Below, piece by piece: positions 19,917 to 39,175 of a stretch of DNA of 64,000 nucleotides. The stretch spans positions 24,907-88,906 of the forward strand of contig CAZWEM010000013.1 of the NCBI GenBank assembly GCA_964632315.1, given 5' to 3'. The stretch comes from an uncultured archaeon. GTDB lineage: Archaea > Asgardarchaeota > Lokiarchaeia > Sigyniarchaeales > SOKP01. Every line of letters starts with the position of its first letter. The first letter of the stretch is position 1. Under the pieces are notes generated by a model that ran no database searches, was not told the DNA's origin, and was given only the letters and a program-made list of their open reading frames with translations. The translations under genes were made by a program, and so were the position numbers.

Positions 19917-20612
19917 TTATTCTTCTTTTTTTGGCTTAAGAGAGTTGATAATCTTTATTATATCTTCAGCCAATTCATATCTTTGGTCTCGATATTTTTC
20001 ACGTGTAAGTCTTTTTTCTACCTTCAATGGGGTCCCAACTTTTACTCTCAAACCTGGACTATCAAATGTTCCAAATATTTTGCTTTTTTCAGTATAGATA
20101 GCTAAGGGGATAATTGGGGCATCTCCAGCAACCGCAAACTTTAAAATCCCTGCCATGGCTTTTATTTGGATATCGGGTTCTAATTTAGATTCAGGTGTCA
20201 TTGCTACTAAATCTCCTTCTTCATTAAGGTATTGAAACACCTTATCTATCGGTTCGGTATCGTCTTTATCTATTGTACTACGGAACATCCCTAAAGATTT
20301 CAATACAGGTCCATATATTTGATGTTTCATAAGTTTATGATGAACCATGAAGTGAATTCTCCTTCCTGAGACTTGGCTGATTATCGCCATATCTCGTAAG
20401 GCATTATCGCTAATGGTAGTTAAAATAGCTTTCCCTCTCAATGGGATGTTCTGTTTTCCTTCAATCTTAAGATCAGAAAATATGGTAAGTCCTAAACCGC
20501 TAATACCTTTCACTGCACCATACAAGACATCAAGCATGGTATCTTGATCGATTACTTTTTCCTTGCCTTCCGTTTCCGGAGTTTCTTGATTTCCAGACGC
20601 TGTGCCACTCAT
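19917..20612 (-). CDS. PlsC/LPLAT-family acyltransferase-like protein with degenerate catalytic motif
   Basis: IEGKQNIP..G, RIHFM, MTPE, APIIPLAI, VKVGTP; the HX4D site reads SDNALRD. Confidence 0.7.
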   Translation of the reverse strand: MSGTASGNQETPETEGKEKVIDQDTMLDVLYGAVKGISGLGLTIFSDLKIEGKQNIPLRGKAILTTISDNALRDMAIISQVSGRRIHFMVHHKLMKHQIYGPVLKSLGMFRSTIDKDDTEPIDKVFQYLNEEGDLVAMTPESKLEPDIQIKAMAGILKFAVAGDAPIIPLAIYTEKSKIFGTFDSPGLRVKVGTPLKVEKRLTREKYRDQRYELAEDIIKIINSLKPKKEE

Positions 20613-21086: not shown

Positions 21087-21632
21087 TTACTCTCGTACTT
21101 TTTCTCTAATTGATAATTTTCTAATATTCGGGTATTCTTCTTCAAATTTATGTAAGATCTCTTTACATGATTTGCATATTGATCCTTCTGATACTATTAG
21201 TACTTCTCCATCTAAGAGTTTTTCCAACTCCCACAAATCTGCCATGGTAACAATCAATTTTCTTACTGCATGATACCATTCTTTATCTCCTGCTACATTC
21301 TTTACCTTAAACACTTTAGAAACAGGCGATATTGGATCGATGATTATGTCTTTTTTTCCATTTTTTGTTTCTATTATTGCAGTCCCCGGTATGAATTGCT
21401 TACCTTCGATTGCCATGATATACCCTTTATGGACTACATTTTCAGGAAATGTGTAATTGAATTTAACATAAGCTATATTCCCACTATCTTTATGCCACCC
21501 TTGTACTTTTCTCACATTTTCAATGATGATTTGGTCAGAGAAATTCGAACTTTTTTCAATGTTTAGTTTCTGTTTTATAGCGTCAATGAGCTCTTGATCG
21601 GATAAATTTTCTGATGATACTACCCAAGTCAT
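21087..21632 (-). CDS. Polymorphic-toxin-type nucleic acid deaminase domain, possibly inactive
   Basis: GNIAY, HAVRK (HAExK site), GEVLIVSE..ICKSCK.IL.KF...YPNI; frame open upstream to CTG at 21698. Confidence 0.6.
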   Translation of the reverse strand: MTWVVSSENLSDQELIDAIKQKLNIEKSSNFSDQIIIENVRKVQGWHKDSGNIAYVKFNYTFPENVVHKGYIMAIEGKQFIPGTAIIETKNGKKDIIIDPISPVSKVFKVKNVAGDKEWYHAVRKLIVTMADLWELEKLLDGEVLIVSEGSICKSCKEILHKFEEEYPNIRKLSIREKVRE

Positions 21633-21836: not shown

Positions 21837-23510
21837 TTATACGTCTTTCACATCATACATGAGTAAACTCTTTAATTGAGCCATCATGTTATCCGTTAAA
21901 CGTTTTAATTCGTCATATTCGGGCATTGTTTTTCCCCAATATTGCTTATGTTCCATGAAGGGAGGTCCGGCTTTTAAGATACTTCCCTTATAAAAATTTA
22001 ACATTTTAGCATGTTTAGGATAAGTATCTTCTGTACCCGTAATACCAATTAAACAAATCGGGACTTGTTTTTCAATTGCTAATCGTACTGCTCCTGTATG
22101 GCCTTCTAGTATCTGACCCCCTCCAAGATTAGTGGTTCCTTCGGGATATATGCATACCAACTGTCCTTTATCTAAGAGATCTCTTGCAAAGTTAAAAGAA
22201 TCGACATCATGCTGACCTCGCTTCAAAGGAAACGCATGATGATTTCTAATCCAGGCATTTACGATTGGAATCTTGAATAAGGATTGCTTGGACATTTGAT
22301 AGATAACCCGGCGTGGTTCATTGTAAATGATGCTCGTAGCTAAAAGAATGACATCCCATTCGGAATTATGGGTTGTGCATAATACGGCTGAACCTGTTTT
22401 TGGAAGGTATTTATCAAAATCAATCGCCTTATAGGGGATCATTACTTGATTCCAGTTATGCACGATTTCACCGGATATAGTGTAAACTACTTTTTGGAAT
22501 TGTTCCCTCAAACCAAATTCTTCTAAAGATCGTAAGAATCCATACCAGATGTCGTCGATGGACCATAATGCCCCCATCGTAAAATCTTTAAACCACTTTT
22601 TAATATTAAATGACTCTTTCTTTTCAGGTTGTTGCGCTGATTCTGCTAATTCTTCTTCGGTCTTTCCATAGGTCCCCTCACGGAGCTCAAATACAATAGT
22701 GCGAAGCTCTTCGGTAAGTTTTCGTATGTCTTCATAACTTACTTTATTGGTATCATATTTATCATAATAGAGAGGATCACCAACCCTAGCAAAAACGTGA
22801 GTCGGCTTCATCATGAGGCCTCCTTTTGGTAATGCTTTATCTGAACCTATGATTGCCATTGGTACTATTGGTACTCCCGTCTCAATTGCTAATCTCACTG
22901 CACCAGTTTTGAACTGGCCCAATTCTCCTTCTGTTGAACGAGTACCCTCTGGAAAAATTCCAACCCACTCACCTTGATCTAATATCTCTTTTGCTTTCTT
23001 CCATCCTAACGCGGGATTATCTCGATCTAGTTTGAAAGCACCAAGATTCGTGAATAAACTTCTCACTATTGGGGTTTTAAAATTGTCTAATTTACTCATA
23101 AAACGGATTTTCCTATGGCAAGCCATACCACAGAAAAATGGGTCAATGTGGCTCTGATGATTGCTGACAACGATACCTGGGCCATAATCAGGAAACATAT
23201 TTCCTTTAGGATAATAATATTTGAAATTCCACAGTACACGCCCAATAAATTTTATATAAAACGTGGCTAGCCACCATTGAAGCCTCTGCTCCGTGAATTC
23301 AACATCTAATCGTCGAATAACTTCACGATATTGGTCATTCAAGAAATCTATAGGATTATTCTTTAGTAATTTATAGAGAAAATTTTCATGACCTTTTTCA
23401 TATTGCAGGTCTTCTTTCATTTTTTCCTCGAGGATCTTCTCGTGGTTGACTTCCCCGTAGGATTCATACGCCTCATAATCGCGTTTTTCGAGTTCTACCA
23501 TTTTTAGCAC
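21837..23510 (-). CDS. Tandem double PlsC/LPLAT acyltransferase
   Basis: Domain 1: NHQSHID, FPEGTRS, VPIVP. Domain 2: THNSEWD, YPEGT, VPICL. Confidence 0.9.
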   Translation of the reverse strand: MLKMVELEKRDYEAYESYGEVNHEKILEEKMKEDLQYEKGHENFLYKLLKNNPIDFLNDQYREVIRRLDVEFTEQRLQWWLATFYIKFIGRVLWNFKYYYPKGNMFPDYGPGIVVSNHQSHIDPFFCGMACHRKIRFMSKLDNFKTPIVRSLFTNLGAFKLDRDNPALGWKKAKEILDQGEWVGIFPEGTRSTEGELGQFKTGAVRLAIETGVPIVPMAIIGSDKALPKGGLMMKPTHVFARVGDPLYYDKYDTNKVSYEDIRKLTEELRTIVFELREGTYGKTEEELAESAQQPEKKESFNIKKWFKDFTMGALWSIDDIWYGFLRSLEEFGLREQFQKVVYTISGEIVHNWNQVMIPYKAIDFDKYLPKTGSAVLCTTHNSEWDVILLATSIIYNEPRRVIYQMSKQSLFKIPIVNAWIRNHHAFPLKRGQHDVDSFNFARDLLDKGQLVCIYPEGTTNLGGGQILEGHTGAVRLAIEKQVPICLIGITGTEDTYPKHAKMLNFYKGSILKAGPPFMEHKQYWGKTMPEYDELKRLTDNMMAQLKSLLMYDVKDV

Positions 23511-23752: not shown

Positions 23753-24535
23753 TTAGGAATTTACTTTCATGCTCTCTTGAGAATTAGGATCTTCGACTAT
23801 TCTTTTTTCAATAATATCGATAAGCTGATTGAGATTATCAATTATCATGTTAGGCTCGAAATTTGAAAGTATTTCCCTACTACTTACACCAGTCATAACC
23901 GCAATAGTCCAAATTCCTGCTTCATTCCCGGCTTCTATATCGGAGGGCATATCTCCAATCATTATGAATTCATTTGCTTTTTTTGATCTATAGTTTTCAA
24001 AAATTGGATTTAATGATTCAGGATCTGGCTTTAAGGCGGGAAGCAAATCAGTTCCATATATACCTTTAAAAAAACCTTTTATCTTATGTTTTTCAAGATG
24101 TTCCATGATGTTTTTAGTTTGATTGTGAGACACGATAAAAAGATCAAACGACTTTTTCAGTTTTTTTAATATATTAACCGTATCAGGAAAAAGAGGTGCT
24201 TCTTTGGCATAGGTTAGATAACGCGAGAAAATTTTCGTCGCTATTTCCAACTTTTTCATAAAGGAAAGTGATTGAAGAGACGTGATATGTTTGAACATCT
24301 CATGAGATTGAAGTATGATTTTTGGTAATGGATACCCTTGAATTGTTTCCATGAGTGCGCCAATTTCTTGAATAGTTGAATCAATTTCCGCATTAATTTT
24401 ATTATCACTATAAATTTCATCAATGGAATTTCTTAATGGTTCGCTGATATCTAAAAGTGTCCCATCAAAATCGAAAATGATCCCTTTAATATCTCCATTT
24501 TGCAGTCGTTTAATTAACTGTTTATCTGAAACCAT
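23753..24535 (-). CDS. HAD-superfamily phosphatase (Gph-like)
   Basis: FDFDGTL, VSH, KPDP, IGDMPSDIEAG. Confidence 0.9.
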   Translation of the reverse strand: MVSDKQLIKRLQNGDIKGIIFDFDGTLLDISEPLRNSIDEIYSDNKINAEIDSTIQEIGALMETIQGYPLPKIILQSHEMFKHITSLQSLSFMKKLEIATKIFSRYLTYAKEAPLFPDTVNILKKLKKSFDLFIVSHNQTKNIMEHLEKHKIKGFFKGIYGTDLLPALKPDPESLNPIFENYRSKKANEFIMIGDMPSDIEAGNEAGIWTIAVMTGVSSREILSNFEPNMIIDNLNQLIDIIEKRIVEDPNSQESMKVNS

Positions 24536-26286: not shown

Positions 26287-26829
26287 ATGAATGAATATAA
26301 ATTCAAATTGTGCATAATCGGAGACGGAGGTGTAGGAAAAACCTCTCTTACACGCAGATATCTAGAAGGCGTATTTAAAGCTAATTGGAAAATGACGATC
26401 GGAGTCGATTTTTATCTTAAAAAGCTAAATTTTAATGATCAAAAAGTATCGCTTCAAGTGTGGGATTTCGCTGGAGAAGAAAAATTTAGGTTCCTATTAC
26501 CTGGTATTTTAATGGGTGCAAATGGGACTATTTTCATGTATGATATTACTAGATATTCTACGTTCAATAACTTAGATCATTGGTTAGAGGTATTTAATGA
26601 TACAAATAAAGAACACGGACAAGTTATCTCTAAAATTTTAGTCGGAAGTAAAACCGATTTAAATGATAATAGAGTAGTTTCTAAAGATGATGCGATAAGA
26701 TATGCCGAAAATGCGAACTTTTCAAACTATTTCGAATGTTCTTCTAAGAGCGGTGATAACGTAGAGGAAGTATTTGATAGAATCGCCAGAATAATGCTTG
26801 AACATGCAACTCAACTAAAAGTGAAATAA
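26287..26829 (+). CDS. Rab-like small GTPase
   Basis: GDGGVGKT, TIGVDF, WDFAGEE, SKTD, CSSK; no C-terminal prenylation cysteine. Confidence 0.92.
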   Translation: MNEYKFKLCIIGDGGVGKTSLTRRYLEGVFKANWKMTIGVDFYLKKLNFNDQKVSLQVWDFAGEEKFRFLLPGILMGANGTIFMYDITRYSTFNNLDHWLEVFNDTNKEHGQVISKILVGSKTDLNDNRVVSKDDAIRYAENANFSNYFECSSKSGDNVEEVFDRIARIMLEHATQLKVK

Positions 26830-27035: not shown

Positions 27036-28649
27036 ATGAAGTCAATGCACGAGTTAGGAACTCCAGTTCCCTCTAAACGCTCTTTAGTTGTAAGAAATAT
27101 TAAGGATGTCACGAAGGAACAGCGTGAAATTGCCTTAAGAAAAACTGAGTATAGTATGTTCTCATTTCCCGCTGACTTATTAGTCCTTGACTTTCTATCT
27201 GATAGTGGAACTACAACAATGACAGATTTGCAGTGGTCAGCGTTATTTCATGGTGATGAATCTTATGGTAGAAATAAAGGGTATTACGTTCTTCTTGATG
27301 CTATTAGAGATACTTTTGAACGAGGAAATCATCCAAAGAAATCTGTAGATCTCATATTATCTGGAGAAACAAATGTAAACAGACTAATGGATGAGTTATA
27401 CCTCACTTCATATAAAGGAGGCTTTGTAAATGGAGGAATTTATCAGCTTGAACGACCAAATAGTTTTATCGTACCTCAAGGGCGGTGTGCAGAAAATTTA
27501 CTATTTTCTACACTCCAACAAATAAAAAAAGAATTAAAAATAAAACAAGATTGGTACATCCCTAACAATGGACATTTTGATACAACTGAAGCCAATATCG
27601 CTGCTGCTGGCATGAATCCCGTTAATATGTTCTCAGATAGTTTATTTGAAGAATTTAATCTTGATGATATGGATAAGACTAATCCATTTAAAGGAAACAT
27701 GGAAGTAACGGATTTAGAAGATTTCCTCAATGATAGAGGTGTGGACTGCATTCCATTAATATATTTAACGGTTACAAACAATACAGCAGCGGGACAACCT
27801 GTTTCAATGAAAAATATTAAAGAGGTATATGATATAGCTAAAAATAATGAGATTCCCTTGTTTTTTGATGCTTGTAGATTTGCAGAAAACGCTATTTTTA
27901 TCAAGAAATTTGAAAAAGGTTATAATAAAATCTCAATCCCCGAAATTGTAAAGGAGATTTTCTCATATGCCGATGGCTTTACCATTAGCTTCAAAAAAGA
28001 TGGATTGGCAAATATGGGGGGAGGATTATTTTTCAAAGATAAAGGATTGTTTCATAGAAAGTTTTCTGAGAATAAAGACGTAGGGATCAGATTAAAAGAA
28101 CGCCAAATTCTTGCTTATGGGAATGATTCTTATGGCGGTTTATCAGGAAGGGATATTATGGCACTTGCAGTAGGCCTTTATGAAGTAATGCGAGAATCTT
28201 ATTTAAATGACCGGATTAGACTTGTTAGAGAATTCGCTTATAAATTAGCAAAAAATGGTGTTCCTGTAGTGTTACCCGCTGGAGGTCATGCGGTCTATCT
28301 AAATATGAATAAGTTTTTTGAAGGTACGAAAATGAGCCTTGATGAATTTGGGGGAGTTGGTTTTACCATAGAATTAGTAAGACATTATGGAATCAGAGGA
28401 GCTGAATTGGGACCTTTTGCATTTGAATGGGATAATAAAACCGAAGAGGAACGAAAAGGCATTTTAAACTTAGTTCGATTCGCAGTCCCACGAAATGTCT
28501 ATGAATCCTCCCACATTGATTATGCTGTAGCTGCGATTACTGAGCTATATAAAAATAAAGAACAAATTCCTAAAGTAAAGATTTCGCGTGGAGTAAAGTT
28601 AAGATTGCGACATTTTCAATCAGGTCTTGAGCCAGTATATGGTAAATAA
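27036..28649 (+). CDS. Tryptophanase / tyrosine phenol-lyase family beta-eliminating lyase
   Basis: DFLSDSGT, GDESY, QGRCAE, HFDTT, DACRFAENA, PLP lysine in SFKKDG, YGGLSGRD, GGHAV, LRHF. Confidence 0.88.
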   Translation: MKSMHELGTPVPSKRSLVVRNIKDVTKEQREIALRKTEYSMFSFPADLLVLDFLSDSGTTTMTDLQWSALFHGDESYGRNKGYYVLLDAIRDTFERGNHPKKSVDLILSGETNVNRLMDELYLTSYKGGFVNGGIYQLERPNSFIVPQGRCAENLLFSTLQQIKKELKIKQDWYIPNNGHFDTTEANIAAAGMNPVNMFSDSLFEEFNLDDMDKTNPFKGNMEVTDLEDFLNDRGVDCIPLIYLTVTNNTAAGQPVSMKNIKEVYDIAKNNEIPLFFDACRFAENAIFIKKFEKGYNKISIPEIVKEIFSYADGFTISFKKDGLANMGGGLFFKDKGLFHRKFSENKDVGIRLKERQILAYGNDSYGGLSGRDIMALAVGLYEVMRESYLNDRIRLVREFAYKLAKNGVPVVLPAGGHAVYLNMNKFFEGTKMSLDEFGGVGFTIELVRHYGIRGAELGPFAFEWDNKTEEERKGILNLVRFAVPRNVYESSHIDYAVAAITELYKNKEQIPKVKISRGVKLRLRHFQSGLEPVYGK

Positions 28650-30297: not shown

Positions 30298-30840
30298 ATG
30301 AGTAAAGTTTATACTTCTGCAGTCGTGATTATTCCTCCAGAAGATGAATGGATTTTAATCCAACAAATTAGAAAGTTATATGATTGGCAAATAAACAGAT
30401 GGATGCCACATATCACCCTCCTATATCCATTTAGACCAGAACATCTTTTTAATAAAATCTTAGGCAATTTTAAAAACACGTGTAAAAATATTACCTCATT
30501 TAATATCACCTTGAAAGAGATCAAATCTTTCACTCATGGAAAAAGTAGTCATACAATCTGGTTATCTCCAGAACCTATCGAACTAATAAAAGAACTTCAA
30601 GAAAAACTACTGAAAATAGTACCAGATTGCGATGATGTGAATAAACACGTGAAAGAATATACTCCTCATCTAAGTATTGGACAATTAAAAAGCTCTAAAG
30701 ACGATCTAAGTAAAATTATCAATCAAATTCAGGAAAATTGGAAGCCAATCGTCTTTTTGATAGAAAAAATTGCTTTTATCTCGCGTGAAAAAGAAAAAAA
30801 GAGTAGATTTCAAATAAAAAAGGAAATATTTTTAAAATGA
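30298..30840 (+). CDS. 2H phosphoesterase (2'-5' RNA ligase-like family)
   Basis: Two HxT/S motifs: PHITLLYPF and PHLSIGQ. Confidence 0.85.
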   Translation: MSKVYTSAVVIIPPEDEWILIQQIRKLYDWQINRWMPHITLLYPFRPEHLFNKILGNFKNTCKNITSFNITLKEIKSFTHGKSSHTIWLSPEPIELIKELQEKLLKIVPDCDDVNKHVKEYTPHLSIGQLKSSKDDLSKIINQIQENWKPIVFLIEKIAFISREKEKKSRFQIKKEIFLK

Positions 30841-31009
30841 TTCACAATACAAATTTTTAAAGCTGGGTTTTCGTTAATGGAATATTAACACTATTGTATT
30901 AAACCAATGCAAAATTAAGATGAACTCAAAGATTCGCTGCTAATATGATGACGCAAATAGTAGATTGGTTACTATTTTAGATATTCAATTGGTTAGAGGT
31001 TTCTATTAA

Positions 31010-32086
31010 ATGGTATTTAGTAACCCGATAAAAAACAAGAAAATAAAGGTTGGTATCCCCAGAGCACTCCATTTCTATCGTTACTACCCTTTTTGGAAAA
31101 AATTACTCGAAGAATTAGATGTTGATATCATTGTAAGTTCTCCAACAAATAAAACAATAGTAAATCTAGGGGTCACCCATGGTTTTGGTGAACTTTGTAT
31201 CCCTGTAAAAATATATTATGGACAAGTCATAAATTTAATCGAGAAATATTCTGATTTAGATTTTCTTTTTGTCCCAAGATATGTATCTGAAGATCCTGAT
31301 TCCTATTTTTGTCCTAAATTTATTTCACTCCCTGATGTAATTAAAATTCTACCTAAAATGCCAAAGATACTAAATTTTGAGGTAAATGCAAAAGAATTTC
31401 CCATTGCAATTTCTGCCATAGAACTTGGAAAACAACTTGGTAAAAATCCCATTGTATCTCTTAAGGCGTATAGGAAAGCACAATCATACTTCTATGAATA
31501 TCACAGATTTCTCCGTGAAGGAGGTTCAGTAAATTATGCTTTACGTTTAGTTCAGCGTAATTTACCTTTTAAACTCCCGAAAAAGCAACTTAAGGGGGAA
31601 ATTCGATTTCTCTTATTAGGTCACGCCTATAACCTATTTGATACTTTTATTAATTTAGATTTTATTAAAAAATTACAAGATCAAAATGTAGAAGTACTCA
31701 CTATTGAAAACCTCCCAGAATATATCTTCAAAAAACCAGTTATAGTAAATCCAAACGGAGGGAAATTAAGGAATTATTGGCGTCATGAAGAAGAAATAAT
31801 GCAAGCCATTCGATTTTTTCTTACTAAGGGTCGAAATGAAATAGATGGTGTCATTTTTTTAATTAGCTTTGCATGTGGTCCAGATAGTCTTATCTCTGAA
31901 TTAATAATGCGCGATATGAAAGTAGTTGGATTACCATTTCTGGAGATAATAATGGATGAACATTCGGGAGAAGCAGGAATGATGACTCGAATAGAGAGTT
32001 TTGTTGAAATGGTCCGTCGAAAAAGAAAGAAACTTGGTTTAGAACCGAGATGGAAATCAAAAACTAACTTTTCAGAAGATGTTTAA
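31010..32086 (+). CDS. DUF2229 / 2-hydroxyacyl-CoA dehydratase-like subunit (PlsA/Ger-related)
   Basis: VGIPRAL, LCIPVK, FCPKF, GHAYN, SFACGPDS, DEHSGEAG..TRIESF. Confidence 0.8.
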   Translation: MVFSNPIKNKKIKVGIPRALHFYRYYPFWKKLLEELDVDIIVSSPTNKTIVNLGVTHGFGELCIPVKIYYGQVINLIEKYSDLDFLFVPRYVSEDPDSYFCPKFISLPDVIKILPKMPKILNFEVNAKEFPIAISAIELGKQLGKNPIVSLKAYRKAQSYFYEYHRFLREGGSVNYALRLVQRNLPFKLPKKQLKGEIRFLLLGHAYNLFDTFINLDFIKKLQDQNVEVLTIENLPEYIFKKPVIVNPNGGKLRNYWRHEEEIMQAIRFFLTKGRNEIDGVIFLISFACGPDSLISELIMRDMKVVGLPFLEIIMDEHSGEAGMMTRIESFVEMVRRKRKKLGLEPRWKSKTNFSEDV

Positions 32087-32429
32087 GAAAGATTTGATTT
32101 CAATTATTTAAAGGAGATAACTATTAATACAAGGATTATATTTCAATTTTGTTCTTAATAGACTTAACTTACATCAAATTAGTTATTCCTTTTTCAAGAC
32201 TTTTTGATGTTTTCCATTAAATAATCAAAAAGTAATTTCTCTAAATTTTACCAATAATTATAGTCTAAAATCTACATAAAAATTAATTATTCTTATGCAT
32301 TTCGTTCATTTTACAAAAATAATGAGAAAATGTATAGTTTTCTTAAAAAAAAACCCATAATAATACTACTAAAAATATCAATTGTTTGAAGTTTTAAAGT
32401 TAAAGGATAATTTATTTATTTAAGGCTAT

Positions 32430-32470
32430 GATATTAAATCAAAGATCCAATTAATTAAGATATTAAATCA
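32430..32470 (+). repeat. 12-bp direct repeat GATATTAAATCA x2 (period 29)
   Basis: Copies at 32430-32441 and 32459-32470, just upstream of the start at 32491. Confidence 0.45.
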
Positions 32471-32490
32471 CTTTAAAAAATAAAAAAACT

Positions 32491-33678
32491 ATGCTTATAT
32501 CCTTTCCGAATTTAGGTAATTCATGGCCTGCCTTTAAAACGTTGTTTACGGCGTTGGACCTAGATGTAATCCTTCCCGATCCCACAAATCGAGAGGCAAT
32601 CAAAATTGGGGTTAAATATAGCCCTGAGTTTGTATGTTTTCCCTTTAAAGCAACACTTGGCGATTTTGTTAGTGCTATTAAGAAAGGAGCAGATACTTTG
32701 GTAATGGCAATCGATTGTGGACCTTGTCGCTTTGGGTTTTATGCAAGTGTTCAAGAACGGATTTTAAAGGACATGGGATATGAGAACATACATGTAATTC
32801 CCTTAGATCAAGCTGATCTTTTGGAATTTCATTGGGTCAAGACGCTTCAAGACTTAAATGGTCGAAAAGACTTGTTTATGTACTCGAAATTTGTTAAAGC
32901 AGTAATGTATTTCTTGAAAAAAACAAAATTAATACAAGATATTCAAACAGCAGAAGGATTATTCCGTGCTTATGAACGTAATTTAGGAGCTACGACTCAA
33001 GTCGTCAACAATTTATTACAGAAGTTAGATGAAGCTAACTCTTTACCAGAACTACGGAATTTTAAAAATGTGATCAAAAAAAATTTTAATACCATTGATG
33101 TTGATAAGACACGAACACCCTTAAGGGTTGGACTTTCAGGTGAGATTCATATTAGCCTTGAGCCATATGTAAATTTAGATATTAGGCGAAAATTAGGGGA
33201 GATGGGTGTTGAAATTCATCAGAATTTAAGTCTTTATGATTGGGTTATTCATAAATTTCATCTTAATTTTCACCGAAAATGGCTTGAACATTTAGCAAAA
33301 CCTTATGTACCAATGGATATTGGCGGTGAATGTGTTTGGGTTATTGGAGAATACATAGATAAAGCAAATGCGGGGTTTGACGGGTTCGTTCATTCCTATC
33401 CTTTTACGTGCATGCCTGAAGTGACTGCTCGGACAATTATAACCAATAAGCTTAAGAAAATTTACGATCTTCCAATAATTTATTTCTCTTTTGACGAGCA
33501 AAGTGGTCAAGAGGGTTTTCGAACACGATTAGAGGCCTTTTATGATTTAATGCAAGCCAGGCGTGACCAAGAAATTAAGAATACTCCAGAATTTATGGCA
33601 AATAGCAAACAGAAGATTTATCCATATTTTGGAGATAATTTTTATAATGAGATAGCTCAATTAATCCAAACAGAGTGA
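32491..33678 (+). CDS. 2-hydroxyacyl-CoA dehydratase-like reductase subunit (PlsR-like)
   Basis: SPEFVCFPFK, GPCRFG.Y, GEI, GGE, PFTCMPE, DEQSG..G..TRLEAF. Confidence 0.8.
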   Translation: MLISFPNLGNSWPAFKTLFTALDLDVILPDPTNREAIKIGVKYSPEFVCFPFKATLGDFVSAIKKGADTLVMAIDCGPCRFGFYASVQERILKDMGYENIHVIPLDQADLLEFHWVKTLQDLNGRKDLFMYSKFVKAVMYFLKKTKLIQDIQTAEGLFRAYERNLGATTQVVNNLLQKLDEANSLPELRNFKNVIKKNFNTIDVDKTRTPLRVGLSGEIHISLEPYVNLDIRRKLGEMGVEIHQNLSLYDWVIHKFHLNFHRKWLEHLAKPYVPMDIGGECVWVIGEYIDKANAGFDGFVHSYPFTCMPEVTARTIITNKLKKIYDLPIIYFSFDEQSGQEGFRTRLEAFYDLMQARRDQEIKNTPEFMANSKQKIYPYFGDNFYNEIAQLIQTE

Positions 33679-33686
33679 AAATGTAA

Positions 33687-34712
33687 ATGGTTGAAGTTTC
33701 AGATAAAGTAAAAAGTGATGAGAGGAAAAAAGAAGCTTTTTTAGGCATTGATATTGGTTCAGTTTCCTGTAAATTTGTACTCATGAATATAAATGGGGAA
33801 GTTTTGACAAGTGTGTTTTTACGAAATCGAGGTTCTCCGATAGATTCAGCAAAAGCGGGGATGTCAGAATTGAGAACAAAAATACAAGAAAATGAAGAAT
33901 TCCAAGATTATGTCATAAAGTGTTGCGGAACCACGGGTTCGGCACGTTATTTAACTAAAGCGGTCGTTGGTGGTGATTTAGCGAAAACAGAGATAATTGC
34001 TCATGCTGTTGCTACTCAATCAATGTATCCCGAGGTGCGCACAATTTTAGAGATCGGTGGGCAAGATTCGAAAATTATCATTTTGCGGGATGGAATAATA
34101 GTTGATTTCGCAATGAATTCGGTTTGTGCCGCAGGTACAGGTTCATTTCTTGATCACCAAGCAGGTAGGTTATGTATACCAATAGAAGAATTTGGAGATT
34201 ATGCTATTCGATCAACAAATCCGGTTAGCATTGCCGGAAGATGCACTGTATTTGCTGAATCAGACATGATCCATAAACAAAACGCGGGTTATTCCAAGGA
34301 AGATATTATTGCTGGCTTATGCGATTCCTTAGTACGTAATTATATGAATAATCTTGGAAAAGGAAAAGAACTGGAAGAACCTGTTGTATTTCAAGGAGGC
34401 GTTTCATATAATAAAGGAATTGTTGAGGCTTTTGAGCGCCATTTAGGCTGTAGGGTAATTGTACCGAAATATAATGTTTTTATGGGGGCATTAGGGATGG
34501 CAATATTGGTAAGGGATTATTATCTAGAAAATGGGAATGAAACTATATTTCGAGGTTTAGAAGTATCTGATATTGAATTTAAAACTTCTGCTTTTCACTG
34601 TGGGGATTGTCCTAATAATTGTGAAATTGTACAAGTCCAAATTCCCGAACAAGGTAATAAAATAATTGCTAGATGGGGATCAAGATGTGGAAAGTGGGAT
34701 CAGTTAACATGA
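33687..34712 (+). CDS. ASKHA-type CoA-enzyme activase (HgdC/BcrAD family) with C-terminal Cys cluster
   Basis: GIDIGSVS, TTGSAR, EIGGQDSK, MNSVCAAGTGSFL, RCTVFAESD, GGV; tail CGDCPNNC...RCGKW. Confidence 0.9.
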   Translation: MVEVSDKVKSDERKKEAFLGIDIGSVSCKFVLMNINGEVLTSVFLRNRGSPIDSAKAGMSELRTKIQENEEFQDYVIKCCGTTGSARYLTKAVVGGDLAKTEIIAHAVATQSMYPEVRTILEIGGQDSKIIILRDGIIVDFAMNSVCAAGTGSFLDHQAGRLCIPIEEFGDYAIRSTNPVSIAGRCTVFAESDMIHKQNAGYSKEDIIAGLCDSLVRNYMNNLGKGKELEEPVVFQGGVSYNKGIVEAFERHLGCRVIVPKYNVFMGALGMAILVRDYYLENGNETIFRGLEVSDIEFKTSAFHCGDCPNNCEIVQVQIPEQGNKIIARWGSRCGKWDQLT

Positions 34713-34739
34713 TTGTAAATACTTAGAGGTATATGTGAT

Positions 34740-34934
34740 ATGGCAGAATTTTTGAAGCAATTGATGGAATTGGGAGAAGAATTTTTCGAAACCATCAAAC
34801 ACAAGACTAAATTATCTACCTTTTTTGATATGTACACCGAAAAAGTTATTCCTACATTTGTTTCTGAGAAAGATTTAAAAGAGTATTACGAGAAGCGGAT
34901 GGAGGATGTAAATAAACTTATTGATAAATTATAA
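34740..34934 (+). CDS. Small helical hypothetical protein, probably co-transcribed with the activase
   Basis: GAGGT SD upstream; 27 bp after the activase stop. Confidence 0.6.
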   Translation: MAEFLKQLMELGEEFFETIKHKTKLSTFFDMYTEKVIPTFVSEKDLKEYYEKRMEDVNKLIDKL

Positions 34935-35278
34935 ACTAACTCAAAATTTACGATATAAAATACTGCACAAAAAGGACCAGAAGTTATGGGAATAGACAAT
35001 ATCTTTAATAGGGTTTTAATGGGAAACATTCTCTTTTTGGATTTAATTATGCAATAATAATCATACATTTTGGTTGGTTCCCGAACTTGTTAAACTAATG
35101 AAGGATCTTAAAGAAAATTATTTTATTTAGTATCAGATTTTGACGATGTGAATAAATTCACCATTGAAAATTTAATTTTACTTATAACCATATGAAAAGC
35201 TTTCAAAGATAAATCTTTTATTAGATACTATCTCAAATTATAGTAAGACAAAAAGATTAATTTTAGATTTTAGATAAA

Positions 35279-36498: not shown

Positions 36499-37059
36499 AT
36501 GAGTAAAGACTCTAGTGATATTGTTTTCCAAGGTCGAACTGAGGCAATATTTAAAGTAATTGTTATTGGAGATCCCGCCGTGGGGAAAACTAGCTTACTT
36601 ACCAAGTTTTCTACTAATAAGTTTGAGGAGCGTTACGTGGCAACGGTTGGGGTAAATATAGTTAAAGAACCAATCTCCTTAGAAACGCAGAACGTCACGG
36701 TGAACTTGATGTTTTGGGACGTTGCTGGACAACCCCAATTTTACATGCTTCATCGACCATATTTCAATGGAGCGGACGGTATGATTTTAGTATTTGATGT
36801 CACGCGTTCTAGCACGTTCAGTAATGTAAATAATTGGTATACTACAGCAGTCAAGTATGGATTAAGCCATATTCCTCGCATTTTAATAGGAAATAAAATT
36901 GATCTTAACGATGAAAGAAAAATCATTCTACCAATGGCTGAACATTTAAGTGAAAAACTAAACGCTCCATATTTAGAGACTTCGGCATTAACTGGTGAGA
37001 ACGTGAAATTCGTGTTCAATAAAATCGCGCAATTGGTATATGAGTCAAAAGCTTCATAA
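36499..37059 (+). CDS. Rab-like small GTPase
   Basis: GDPAVGKT, TVGV, WDVAGQ, NKID, ETSA. Confidence 0.92.
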   Translation: MSKDSSDIVFQGRTEAIFKVIVIGDPAVGKTSLLTKFSTNKFEERYVATVGVNIVKEPISLETQNVTVNLMFWDVAGQPQFYMLHRPYFNGADGMILVFDVTRSSTFSNVNNWYTTAVKYGLSHIPRILIGNKIDLNDERKIILPMAEHLSEKLNAPYLETSALTGENVKFVFNKIAQLVYESKAS

Positions 37060-38275: not shown

Positions 38276-39175
38276 GTGATTACAATTATACAATATTTAA
38301 ACCTCTTAACTAAGGACGGAAAGAGTCTCATTTTTAGGAACTATGGGAGCTCGGACGTAGATAGAGATTTATTAGCTGGTTTTCTAAGTGCGTTTTCAGG
38401 GTTTATGAAAGAGATAAGTCAACAAGAGATAAGATCTACAGCTACAGACGAATTTAAATACTATTATACCATAATTGATGACATAATTATTGTCGTGTGT
38501 GCTGATTTGGATGATGACGATACAACAATTAATTCAAAAATCACCACCATAAAAAATAAATTCATAGAAAATTATGGTGAGATTATATCTGATGGGTCAT
38601 GGGCAGGAAATCGCTCTGTTTTCAATTCTTTTGAGAAAGTAATCGATGATACCATTTTAGGTGCAATAAAAGTTTCAATCATCGGAATGGGTGGCGTAGG
38701 TAAAACAACTTTACTTCATCTAATTTGTGGAACTGATGTTGATCTAGAATATATTCCAACGATTAATGTCGACATCACGAATTATGATGGTTCAGAATTA
38801 GGGTTGAATCGTAGTATAGTTCTATGGGACTTTGCAGGCCAAGAAAATTTTCGATCCTTATGGAAAAGCCTTTTAGATTCTACGGATATTGCGTTATTGG
38901 TATTAGATTCAAGCTTCGAAAATGTTAATTCCAGTAAAGATATCATTGCCGATATATTGGATAAATATTATAAAGATGTTCTTGTAATCGGAATAGCAAA
39001 CAAACAAGATCTGCCTAATCGATTAACATCCGATTTCTGTGAAAAAATCATTGCAAAAGCAGACAGACACCCCCCTATTAAAGTTCATGGGATGATCGCG
39101 ATCAATCATGTATATAGAGAAAAAATTCATGCTATTTTAACAGAAGCGATAAATCAATTGTATCCGATAAAATAA
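38276..39175 (+). CDS. Longin-domain / small GTPase fusion
   Basis: N-terminal longin-like DG.SLI.R...DLLAGFLSA...F.KE; C-terminal GMGGVGKT, PTI, WDFAGQ, NKQD. Confidence 0.85.
   Translation: MITIIQYLNLLTKDGKSLIFRNYGSSDVDRDLLAGFLSAFSGFMKEISQQEIRSTATDEFKYYYTIIDDIIIVVCADLDDDDTTINSKITTIKNKFIENYGEIISDGSWAGNRSVFNSFEKVIDDTILGAIKVSIIGMGGVGKTTLLHLICGTDVDLEYIPTINVDITNYDGSELGLNRSIVLWDFAGQENFRSLWKSLLDSTDIALLVLDSSFENVNSSKDIIADILDKYYKDVLVIGIANKQDLPNRLTSDFCEKIIAKADRHPPIKVHGMIAINHVYREKIHAILTEAINQLYPIK

Follow-up and report, generated by a model that had tools for sequence, protein, structure and literature searches.

A split PlsA/Ger-like reductase cluster with a candidate fourth subunit, linked to an acyltransferase operon in Promethearchaeia

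Introduction

Anaerobic bacteria reduce acyl-ester lipids to vinyl or alkyl ethers with multidomain enzymes of the PlsA/PlsR and Ger types. PlsA/PlsR corresponds to CPE1194/1195 in Clostridium perfringens and to single-gene PlsA in Enterococcus faecalis, Lactococcus and Listeria (Jackson et al. 2021, cited in PMC8788747, PMC9702350 and PMC12838417). Ger was described from Thermotoga maritima (Tmari_0479) and Desulfatibacillum alkenivorans (SHJ90043), and a start with two activase domains (BBD) is present in all confirmed alkyl-ether producers (PMC13159169). PlsA and Ger are inseparable by sequence, and homologs with a single activase correlate with plasmalogens in Bacillota, a link to function that is correlation only (PMC13274423). 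In this work, a window of 64,000 nucleotides from an uncultured archaeon of the Sigyniarchaeales (Lokiarchaeia; assembly GCA_964632315.1, contig CAZWEM010000013.1, positions 24,907 to 88,906 of the forward strand) was analyzed, in which four genes, here named A, B, C and D (window positions 31010 to 34934), resemble such an enzyme in split form.

A 2022 publication reported Ger homologs in Lokiarchaeota, MK-D1 and Heimdallarchaeota and put forward, in outline, the same hypothesis (PMC13159169); PlsC and PlsY of Loki were published earlier (PMC6737245). Plasmalogens have been stated to be absent from Archaea (PMC13012113), and a 2026 review described the lipids of Asgard archaea as still largely unrevealed (PMC12993045). 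In the literature searched, no paper was found on the acyltransferase-linked operon described below or on D. The origin of bacterial-type lipids in an archaeal host is an open question of eukaryogenesis, and the operon joins PlsC and Ger homologs, which were listed separately before, into one testable pathway.

Results

Domain architecture of A, B and C

The four open reading frames recognized in an earlier, sequence-only reading of the window were all intact on the + strand. A (31010..32086, 358 amino acids (aa)) matched DUF2229 in Pfam (E 1.9e-42) with a weak HGD-D tail, and DUF2229 was found in this genome at the ABCD locus only. B (32491..33678, 395 aa) had a DUF2229 N-terminus (E 1.8e-11) and an HGD-D tail below threshold, and on account of both features it was assigned as a paralog of A (PlsR-like); B, called HgdD-like in the sequence-only reading, is thus not a canonical member of the HgdD family. 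C (33687..34712, 341 aa) is a single ASKHA ATPase activase with one BcrAD_BadFG domain (PF01869, E 9e-47; TIGR00241 above cut-off), the cluster cysteines 147 and 186 and a tail of four cysteines (305/308/312/334), and it presumably forms a homodimer. C was separated from B by 8 bp and from D (34740..34934, 64 aa) by 27 bp; the gap between A and B (32087..32490) was 404 bp long and AT-rich (18.6% GC), at a position that is an insertion hotspot in relatives.

Compared with fused enzymes of ~1400 aa (120 long homologs), C shared ~45% identity with the second activase domain and its tail, A 26-31% with module 3 and B 22-26% with module 4. The fused homologs nearest to C (42-47%) came from groups including Thermodesulfobacteriota and anammox bacteria. 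The domain set of PlsA and Ger (PF01869, PF09989 and HGD-D-like modules) was thus found in C, A and B, which correspond to modules 2, 3 and 4. Because of these module matches, ABC was interpreted as a fused PlsA/Ger-type enzyme in parts, minus one activase domain.

The conserved cysteines agreed with this arrangement. Cys 63, 101 and 289 of A were invariant in 117 sequences and are predicted to hold a site-differentiated [4Fe-4S] cluster, and Cys 49, 79 and 307 of B were invariant in 60 sequences, with E46 of B invariant as well. Both sets aligned with the fused modules of Listeria, Collinsella and Scalindua, and all six reductase cysteines as well as the tail were common to the 1475-aa PlsA-type protein of Listeria. 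The four-Cys tail was detected in all 120 long fused homologs, in every split activase and, the Paraclostridium one excepted, in each second activase domain of the fused enzymes. None of the eight HgdC/YjiL-type activators tested had it, which bore out the statement in the sequence-only reading that the tail follows the activase of fused enzymes and is absent from simple HgdC activators. The A profile matched the PlsA-type protein of Listeria over its full length with 149 bits, and canonical dehydratases with at most 30 bits and at the C-terminus only. The B profile likewise scored PlsA-type modules far above canonical dehydratases.

Structure models of A and B reached pLDDT values of 94 and 92 and showed the HadBC, DCCP and BzdNO folds at 10-17% identity (for HadBC, 3o3m_B: Z 15.9, root-mean-square deviation 4.3, 284 aligned residues, 16% identity). 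This fold is common to the whole superfamily and is non-diagnostic. No solved structure of PlsA or Ger was found by sequence or fold search. B lacked the helical insertion found in fused enzymes around residue 259.

Placement among PlsA/Ger-type enzymes and dehydratases

In the activase tree, the HgdC/YjiL types formed a clade of their own (100/99), and C was located in a Promethearchaeia clade (100/98) roughly tracking taxonomy, apart from the tail-less HgdC/HadI-type activators. Clustering with the dehydratases of amino-acid fermentation, which the sequence-only reading had named as the outcome that would speak against it, was thus seen neither in this tree nor in the scores of the A profile. 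In a quick tree without outgroup, in which proxies stood for validated PlsA and Ger sequences, the split single-activase forms grouped in a clade of their own (SH-aLRT 99) next to the enzymes of the fused two-activase type. On account of this grouping, and as the A-B-C operon is also common in bacteria, ABCD was assigned to a sister branch of PlsA/Ger.

The true family of ABCD is the single-activase operons of Bacillota. Those of Monoglobus pectinilyticus (WP_102365312/311/310) and Natranaerobius (WP_089022935) had the same A-B-C split and order and a single tailed activase and fell in the same clade, the three Monoglobus proteins being 32/31/54% identical to A/B/C. Differently from ABCD, neither a D-like gene nor a neighbouring acyltransferase gene was present in the Bacillota operons sampled. 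PlsA/PlsR shares with ABCD the modules, the six reductase cysteines, the activase motifs and the Cys tail (checked on the Listeria PlsA-type protein), whereas it has two activase domains instead of one, is encoded by one or two genes instead of three core genes and D, is only 23-34% identical, belongs to another clade and lacks the acyltransferase operon and archaeal host of ABCD. Ger has the same Pfam set (PF01869, PF09989, PF06050) but also the BBD start that ABCD lacks, a comparison made through proxy sequences. A fused copy occurs in addition to the split operon in MK-D1, whereas this genome has the split form only. Taken together, ABCD probably works like PlsA/Ger and, strictly speaking, is neither of the two, as it has neither the two-activase architecture nor a place inside the clade of the validated enzymes, as far as proxies represent them.

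HadBC/HgdAB with HadI/HgdC, DCCP:DCCP-R and BzdNOPQ/MbdONPQ share with ABCD the fold (Z 14-16) and ATP-driven electron transfer, but their reductase subunits are only 10-17% identical, they have no Cys tail and their activases form a separate clade. The HGD-D (PF06050) matches of A (26.9 bits) and B (19.7 bits) covered the last 60 C-terminal residues rather than the full length. Elsewhere in the genome, eight canonical HGD-D matches of 93-248 bits were detected, and the sole other PF01869 copy was a tail-less HgdC-type gene on another contig (C28), which indicated that amino-acid fermentation is covered by other genes.

The small protein D

D is an amphipathic helix-Pro-helix protein encoded by a conserved gene, and it matched no family. 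The gene followed C in the Loki, MK-D1-type and Helarchaeales loci and not in the PlsC-free paralogs, and was seen after C only in the acyltransferase-linked clade of Promethearchaeia. In a model of A, B and D, D was placed on residues 253-267 of B with a score of 0.81, compared with 0.01 for the best control; of 80 solved complexes, 58 attained the mark applied to this score, and of 110 mismatched pairs, 2 did so. At least 68% of the contacts agreed between model runs, with a partner pLDDT of at least 63. The modelled interface is the site of the helical insertion in the fused enzymes. The D profile found no match in fused enzymes, insertion included, so the equivalence of D and insertion is positional only; nor did it match the tails of B, by which a fusion of D to B in related cassettes was ruled out. 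These models support D as a fourth subunit docking on B, without demonstrating it.

An ancestral operon with acyltransferases

In relatives, the genes lay on one strand in the order HAD, double PlsC, A, B, C, D and third PlsC. Of 79 relatives in which this could be tested, 78 encoded the double PlsC at the same locus, and in 71 it lay no more than 250 bp from A; the third PlsC followed C/D in 14 loci. Promethearchaeum syntrophicum MK-D1 carried PlsC-A-B-C-D along with a fused enzyme and another ABC set that has no PlsC, and Helarchaeales carried a triple-PlsC protein, HAD, A, B, C and D. DUF2229 was present in 137 of 151 genomes of the class (39 of the 40 high-quality ones), and close orthologs of A (64-84% identity) were found in 80 genome records, mostly labelled Promethearchaeota, which marks the host as an Asgard archaeon of the Loki type. 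As these genomes are kin, the counts measure conservation and not independent events. The connection to PlsC, which the sequence-only reading had drawn from the window, was therefore stronger than the window alone could tell: it is a class-wide operon, with a plsC fossil before A in this genome.

In the window, the acyltransferase genes were located 7.5 kb from ABCD on the opposite strand, close to the ~8 kb given in the sequence-only reading. The double-domain PlsC-family glycerolipid acyltransferase (21837..23510, - strand) had intact HX4D and PEG motifs in both domains, conserved in 72 orthologs. The third PlsC-fold protein (19917..20612, - strand) had no HX4D and is a probable pseudo-enzyme, yet conserved. 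The HAD-family phosphatase (23753..24535, - strand) is the first gene of the ancestral operon. Immediately 5' of A, a decayed 3' end of a double-PlsC gene with stops and a frameshift was detected (30841..30990, + strand; local score 98.5, compared with 58 for the highest of 500 shuffles), and this remnant is, judged by its sequence, the fossil of the ancestral plsC-A junction. An assembly artefact was ruled out, as contigs of three sequencing runs (X1, X2, X4), one of which may be the source sample, bridged the junctions. Behind D (35049-35156, + strand), a decayed partial copy of the 2H-phosphoesterase gene at 30298-30840 was observed, 74% identical over 110 nt, and the ABCD block is therefore flanked by duplicated pieces, likely a rearrangement scar; the repeat search found nothing besides this copy. 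The former place of ABCD, between the two plsC genes, is occupied by an ORF of 181 aa (21087-21632, - strand) with a weak toxin-deaminase match just below cut-off (PF14424, E 1.5e-6).

Further genes were observed at the operons of relatives. In some Helarchaeales, a LarA (lactate racemase)-family gene (L126:6111-7487; same-sized ORFs in L127 and L130) had the triple PlsC on one side and, on the other, an HAD protein of 490 aa that carries an additional C-terminal part. A second cassette 3' of A (e.g. L066:9793-14569), absent from this genome, encoded an 806-aa fusion of a Delta24-sterol-reductase-like flavoprotein with an A paralog, then C' and B'. It started in 31 of 80 relatives (loci among L035-L114) with 92-100% DNA identity, compared with mostly 70-80% for the resident A, which pointed to a sweep that was recent, horizontal and directed at a single site, and which accounts for many of the contig breaks 3' of A. 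It is speculation that its flavin C=C reductase, joined to a PlsA-like subunit, could convert vinyl ethers to alkyl ethers, and the fusion is a further, weaker hint of a lipid substrate. PlsA-like genes of ~985 aa with two activase domains (BBD) were also located shortly 3' of A (L043:9427-12384, L058, L062, L063, L074, L076, L079 and L089).

Discussion

We propose, with a probability of roughly 0.6, that ABCD reduces the esters of acylglycerolipids to ethers and that these acylglycerolipids are products of the acyltransferases of the ancestral operon. Domain identity, motifs, fold and synteny were observed; for the electron path, the substrate and the product we infer the following. The chemistry of HgdC and HadI is the basis for the role of C, whose homodimer would hold a [4Fe-4S] cluster between two Cys147/Cys186 pairs and would use ATP hydrolysis to push low-potential electrons into an A-B heterodimer; the four-Cys tail probably serves as an additional site for a metal or for electron entry. 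As in PlsA and Ger, the clusters of A and B would reduce a glycerolipid at its acyl ester carbonyl through two one-electron steps, with loss of water. The product would be a vinyl ether (plasmalogen), possibly reduced on to an alkyl ether, and the vinyl ether is slightly favoured because of the correlation between single-activase homologs and plasmalogens in Bacillota. D is predicted to complete B in trans, perhaps as a membrane- or lipid-facing flap. The substrate would come from the two active PlsC domains, which may transfer acyl groups from acyl-CoA to glycerol phosphate or to a lyso-lipid, while the HAD protein may trim a phosphate, and the lipid product may be a minor or conditional part of the membrane beside the usual isoprenoid ethers. 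The wider proposal, that the operon has built fatty-acyl glycerolipids since the common ancestor of Promethearchaeia and has converted them to plasmalogens or to alkyl ethers with straight chains within the membranes of these archaea, is tentative, and we would not bet on it as a whole.

The same ester reduction might lead to a product that is not bacterial. Scavenged or isoprenoid-type acyl chains, or an acylated archaeal lyso-ether, would give chimeric or archaeal-looking ethers, or the chain would be released as aldehyde or alcohol in salvage or remodelling. The genome keeps archaeal GGGP synthase, a UbiA-type prenyltransferase and a geranylgeranyl reductase cluster, sister copies of the reductase occur in genomes without detectable PlsC, and only isoprenoid chains were found in MK-D1; PlsC can accept glycerol phosphate in either stereo-form (PMC13400652), and chimeric lipids were proposed earlier for Loki PlsC (PMC6737245). 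De novo diacylation is suggested, however, by the two intact acyltransferase domains in this genome. We know of no enzyme of the PlsC or PlsA family that uses isoprenoid acyl chains, and such a product is considered unlikely.

A role of ABCD on soluble acyl-CoA, by radical dehydration of 2-hydroxyacyl-CoA or by reduction, which would tailor the donor for the neighbouring acyltransferases, is more doubtful still. Most enzymes with the HadBC, DCCP and BzdNO fold act on CoA thioesters, the single-domain activase resembles the HgdC/HadI architecture, no membrane anchor is evident, and some Helarchaeales operons contain the LarA-family (2-hydroxy-acid racemase-like) gene. Among the Helarchaeales loci examined, just three contained this gene, and the low identity to those structures contrasts with the full-length homology and motifs shared with PlsA-type modules and with a Cys tail specific to PlsA/Ger. 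An amino-acid-fermentation 2-hydroxyacyl-CoA dehydratase that lies near PlsC by accident is highly improbable: although Lokiarchaeia ferment amino acids, databases label these proteins dehydratase or activase and the block stands apart from PlsC here, this idea is largely excluded by the activase tree, which separates the two groups, by the genome's own dehydratases (HGD-D matches of 93-248 bits compared with 28 for A) and tail-less activase and by the profile scores, and PlsC adjacency is kept across several orders and as a fossil in this genome.

Several results weigh against the proposed ester-to-ether conversion. ABCD has moved by ~7.5 kb and been flipped in this genome, so that the operon is broken, and A to D have no evident transmembrane segment. 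C has one PF01869 domain in place of the two tandem fused activase domains that every validated PlsA/Ger enzyme carries, and the split forms stand in their separate clade. The Asgard-wide co-occurrence with double PlsC that the sequence-only reading had proposed to look for was not found across the phylum: two genome families had A homologs (f10, 27 of 28; f32, 11 of 11) and no PlsC (0 of 28 and 0 of 11), four others (f19, f27, f30 and f33) had PlsC throughout and few, weak A matches, and none of nine loci sampled outside the Promethearchaeia clade had an acyltransferase neighbour. The PlsC link was therefore considered specific to Promethearchaeia. With the families tried, no clear match to GpsA or G1PDH was obtained, which does not show absence. 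In the literature searched, no report of an active split single-activase system was found, and the Ger authors called the function of single-activase forms unclear (10.1101/2022.04.21.487849). MK-D1, which has the operon and is the one cultured member analyzed, was reported to contain phytane and biphytanes only (10.1101/726976), by a method that may have missed acyl lipids (PMC13400652).

If the wider proposal on the operon is true, plasmalogen-type lipids would occur in Archaea and an Asgard lineage would have a naturally mixed membrane. A first function would be given to the single-activase PlsA family, which is widespread in bacteria, and to the small D subunit, and the pathway would bear on where the non-isoprenoid ether lipids of anoxic sediments come from. 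The significance is limited to Promethearchaeia as far as the acyltransferase-linked operon is concerned, and the operon is not the ancestor of eukaryotic plasmalogens, because those come from an unrelated aerobic pathway.

Genome setting and neighbouring genes

Contamination was ruled out as the source of the locus, as the window contig (C13) had the GC content (0.32) of two other archaeal contigs checked, and as the 80 records with close orthologs were nearly all archaeal by label. The NCBI phylum labels of some close loci (Hod-, Odin-, Thor- and one Actinomycetota) look like mislabels and were left unused. The DNA was found in salt-marsh metagenomes, and no RNA data set was listed among its holders. 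A fourth acyltransferase match was set aside, as it sits on a 9.7-kb contig of 68% GC (C80, L177) with a male-sterility-type reductase; this contig is most likely bacterial contamination of the bin. A sigma-70 promoter scan, a method unsuited to archaea, gave matches at chance level.

In the two families with A homologs and no PlsC (f10 and f32; L143-L162), several A-B and A-B-C paralogs per genome were observed, and one of the families included Gerdarchaeota-labelled members. On contig C3 of this genome (L178:2918-6763), three tandem PlsY-like genes encoded proteins of ~400 aa each, ~2x the length of the PlsY domain. In the window, a gene at 27036-28649 (+ strand, 537 aa), which by eye resembled a pyridoxal phosphate (PLP)-dependent tryptophanase or tyrosine phenol-lyase, was retained close to the operon by several relatives. 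Typical Asgard signature genes at 26287-26829, 36499-37059 and 38276-39175, also recognized by eye, encode small Rab-like GTPases as well as a longin-like GTPase fusion.

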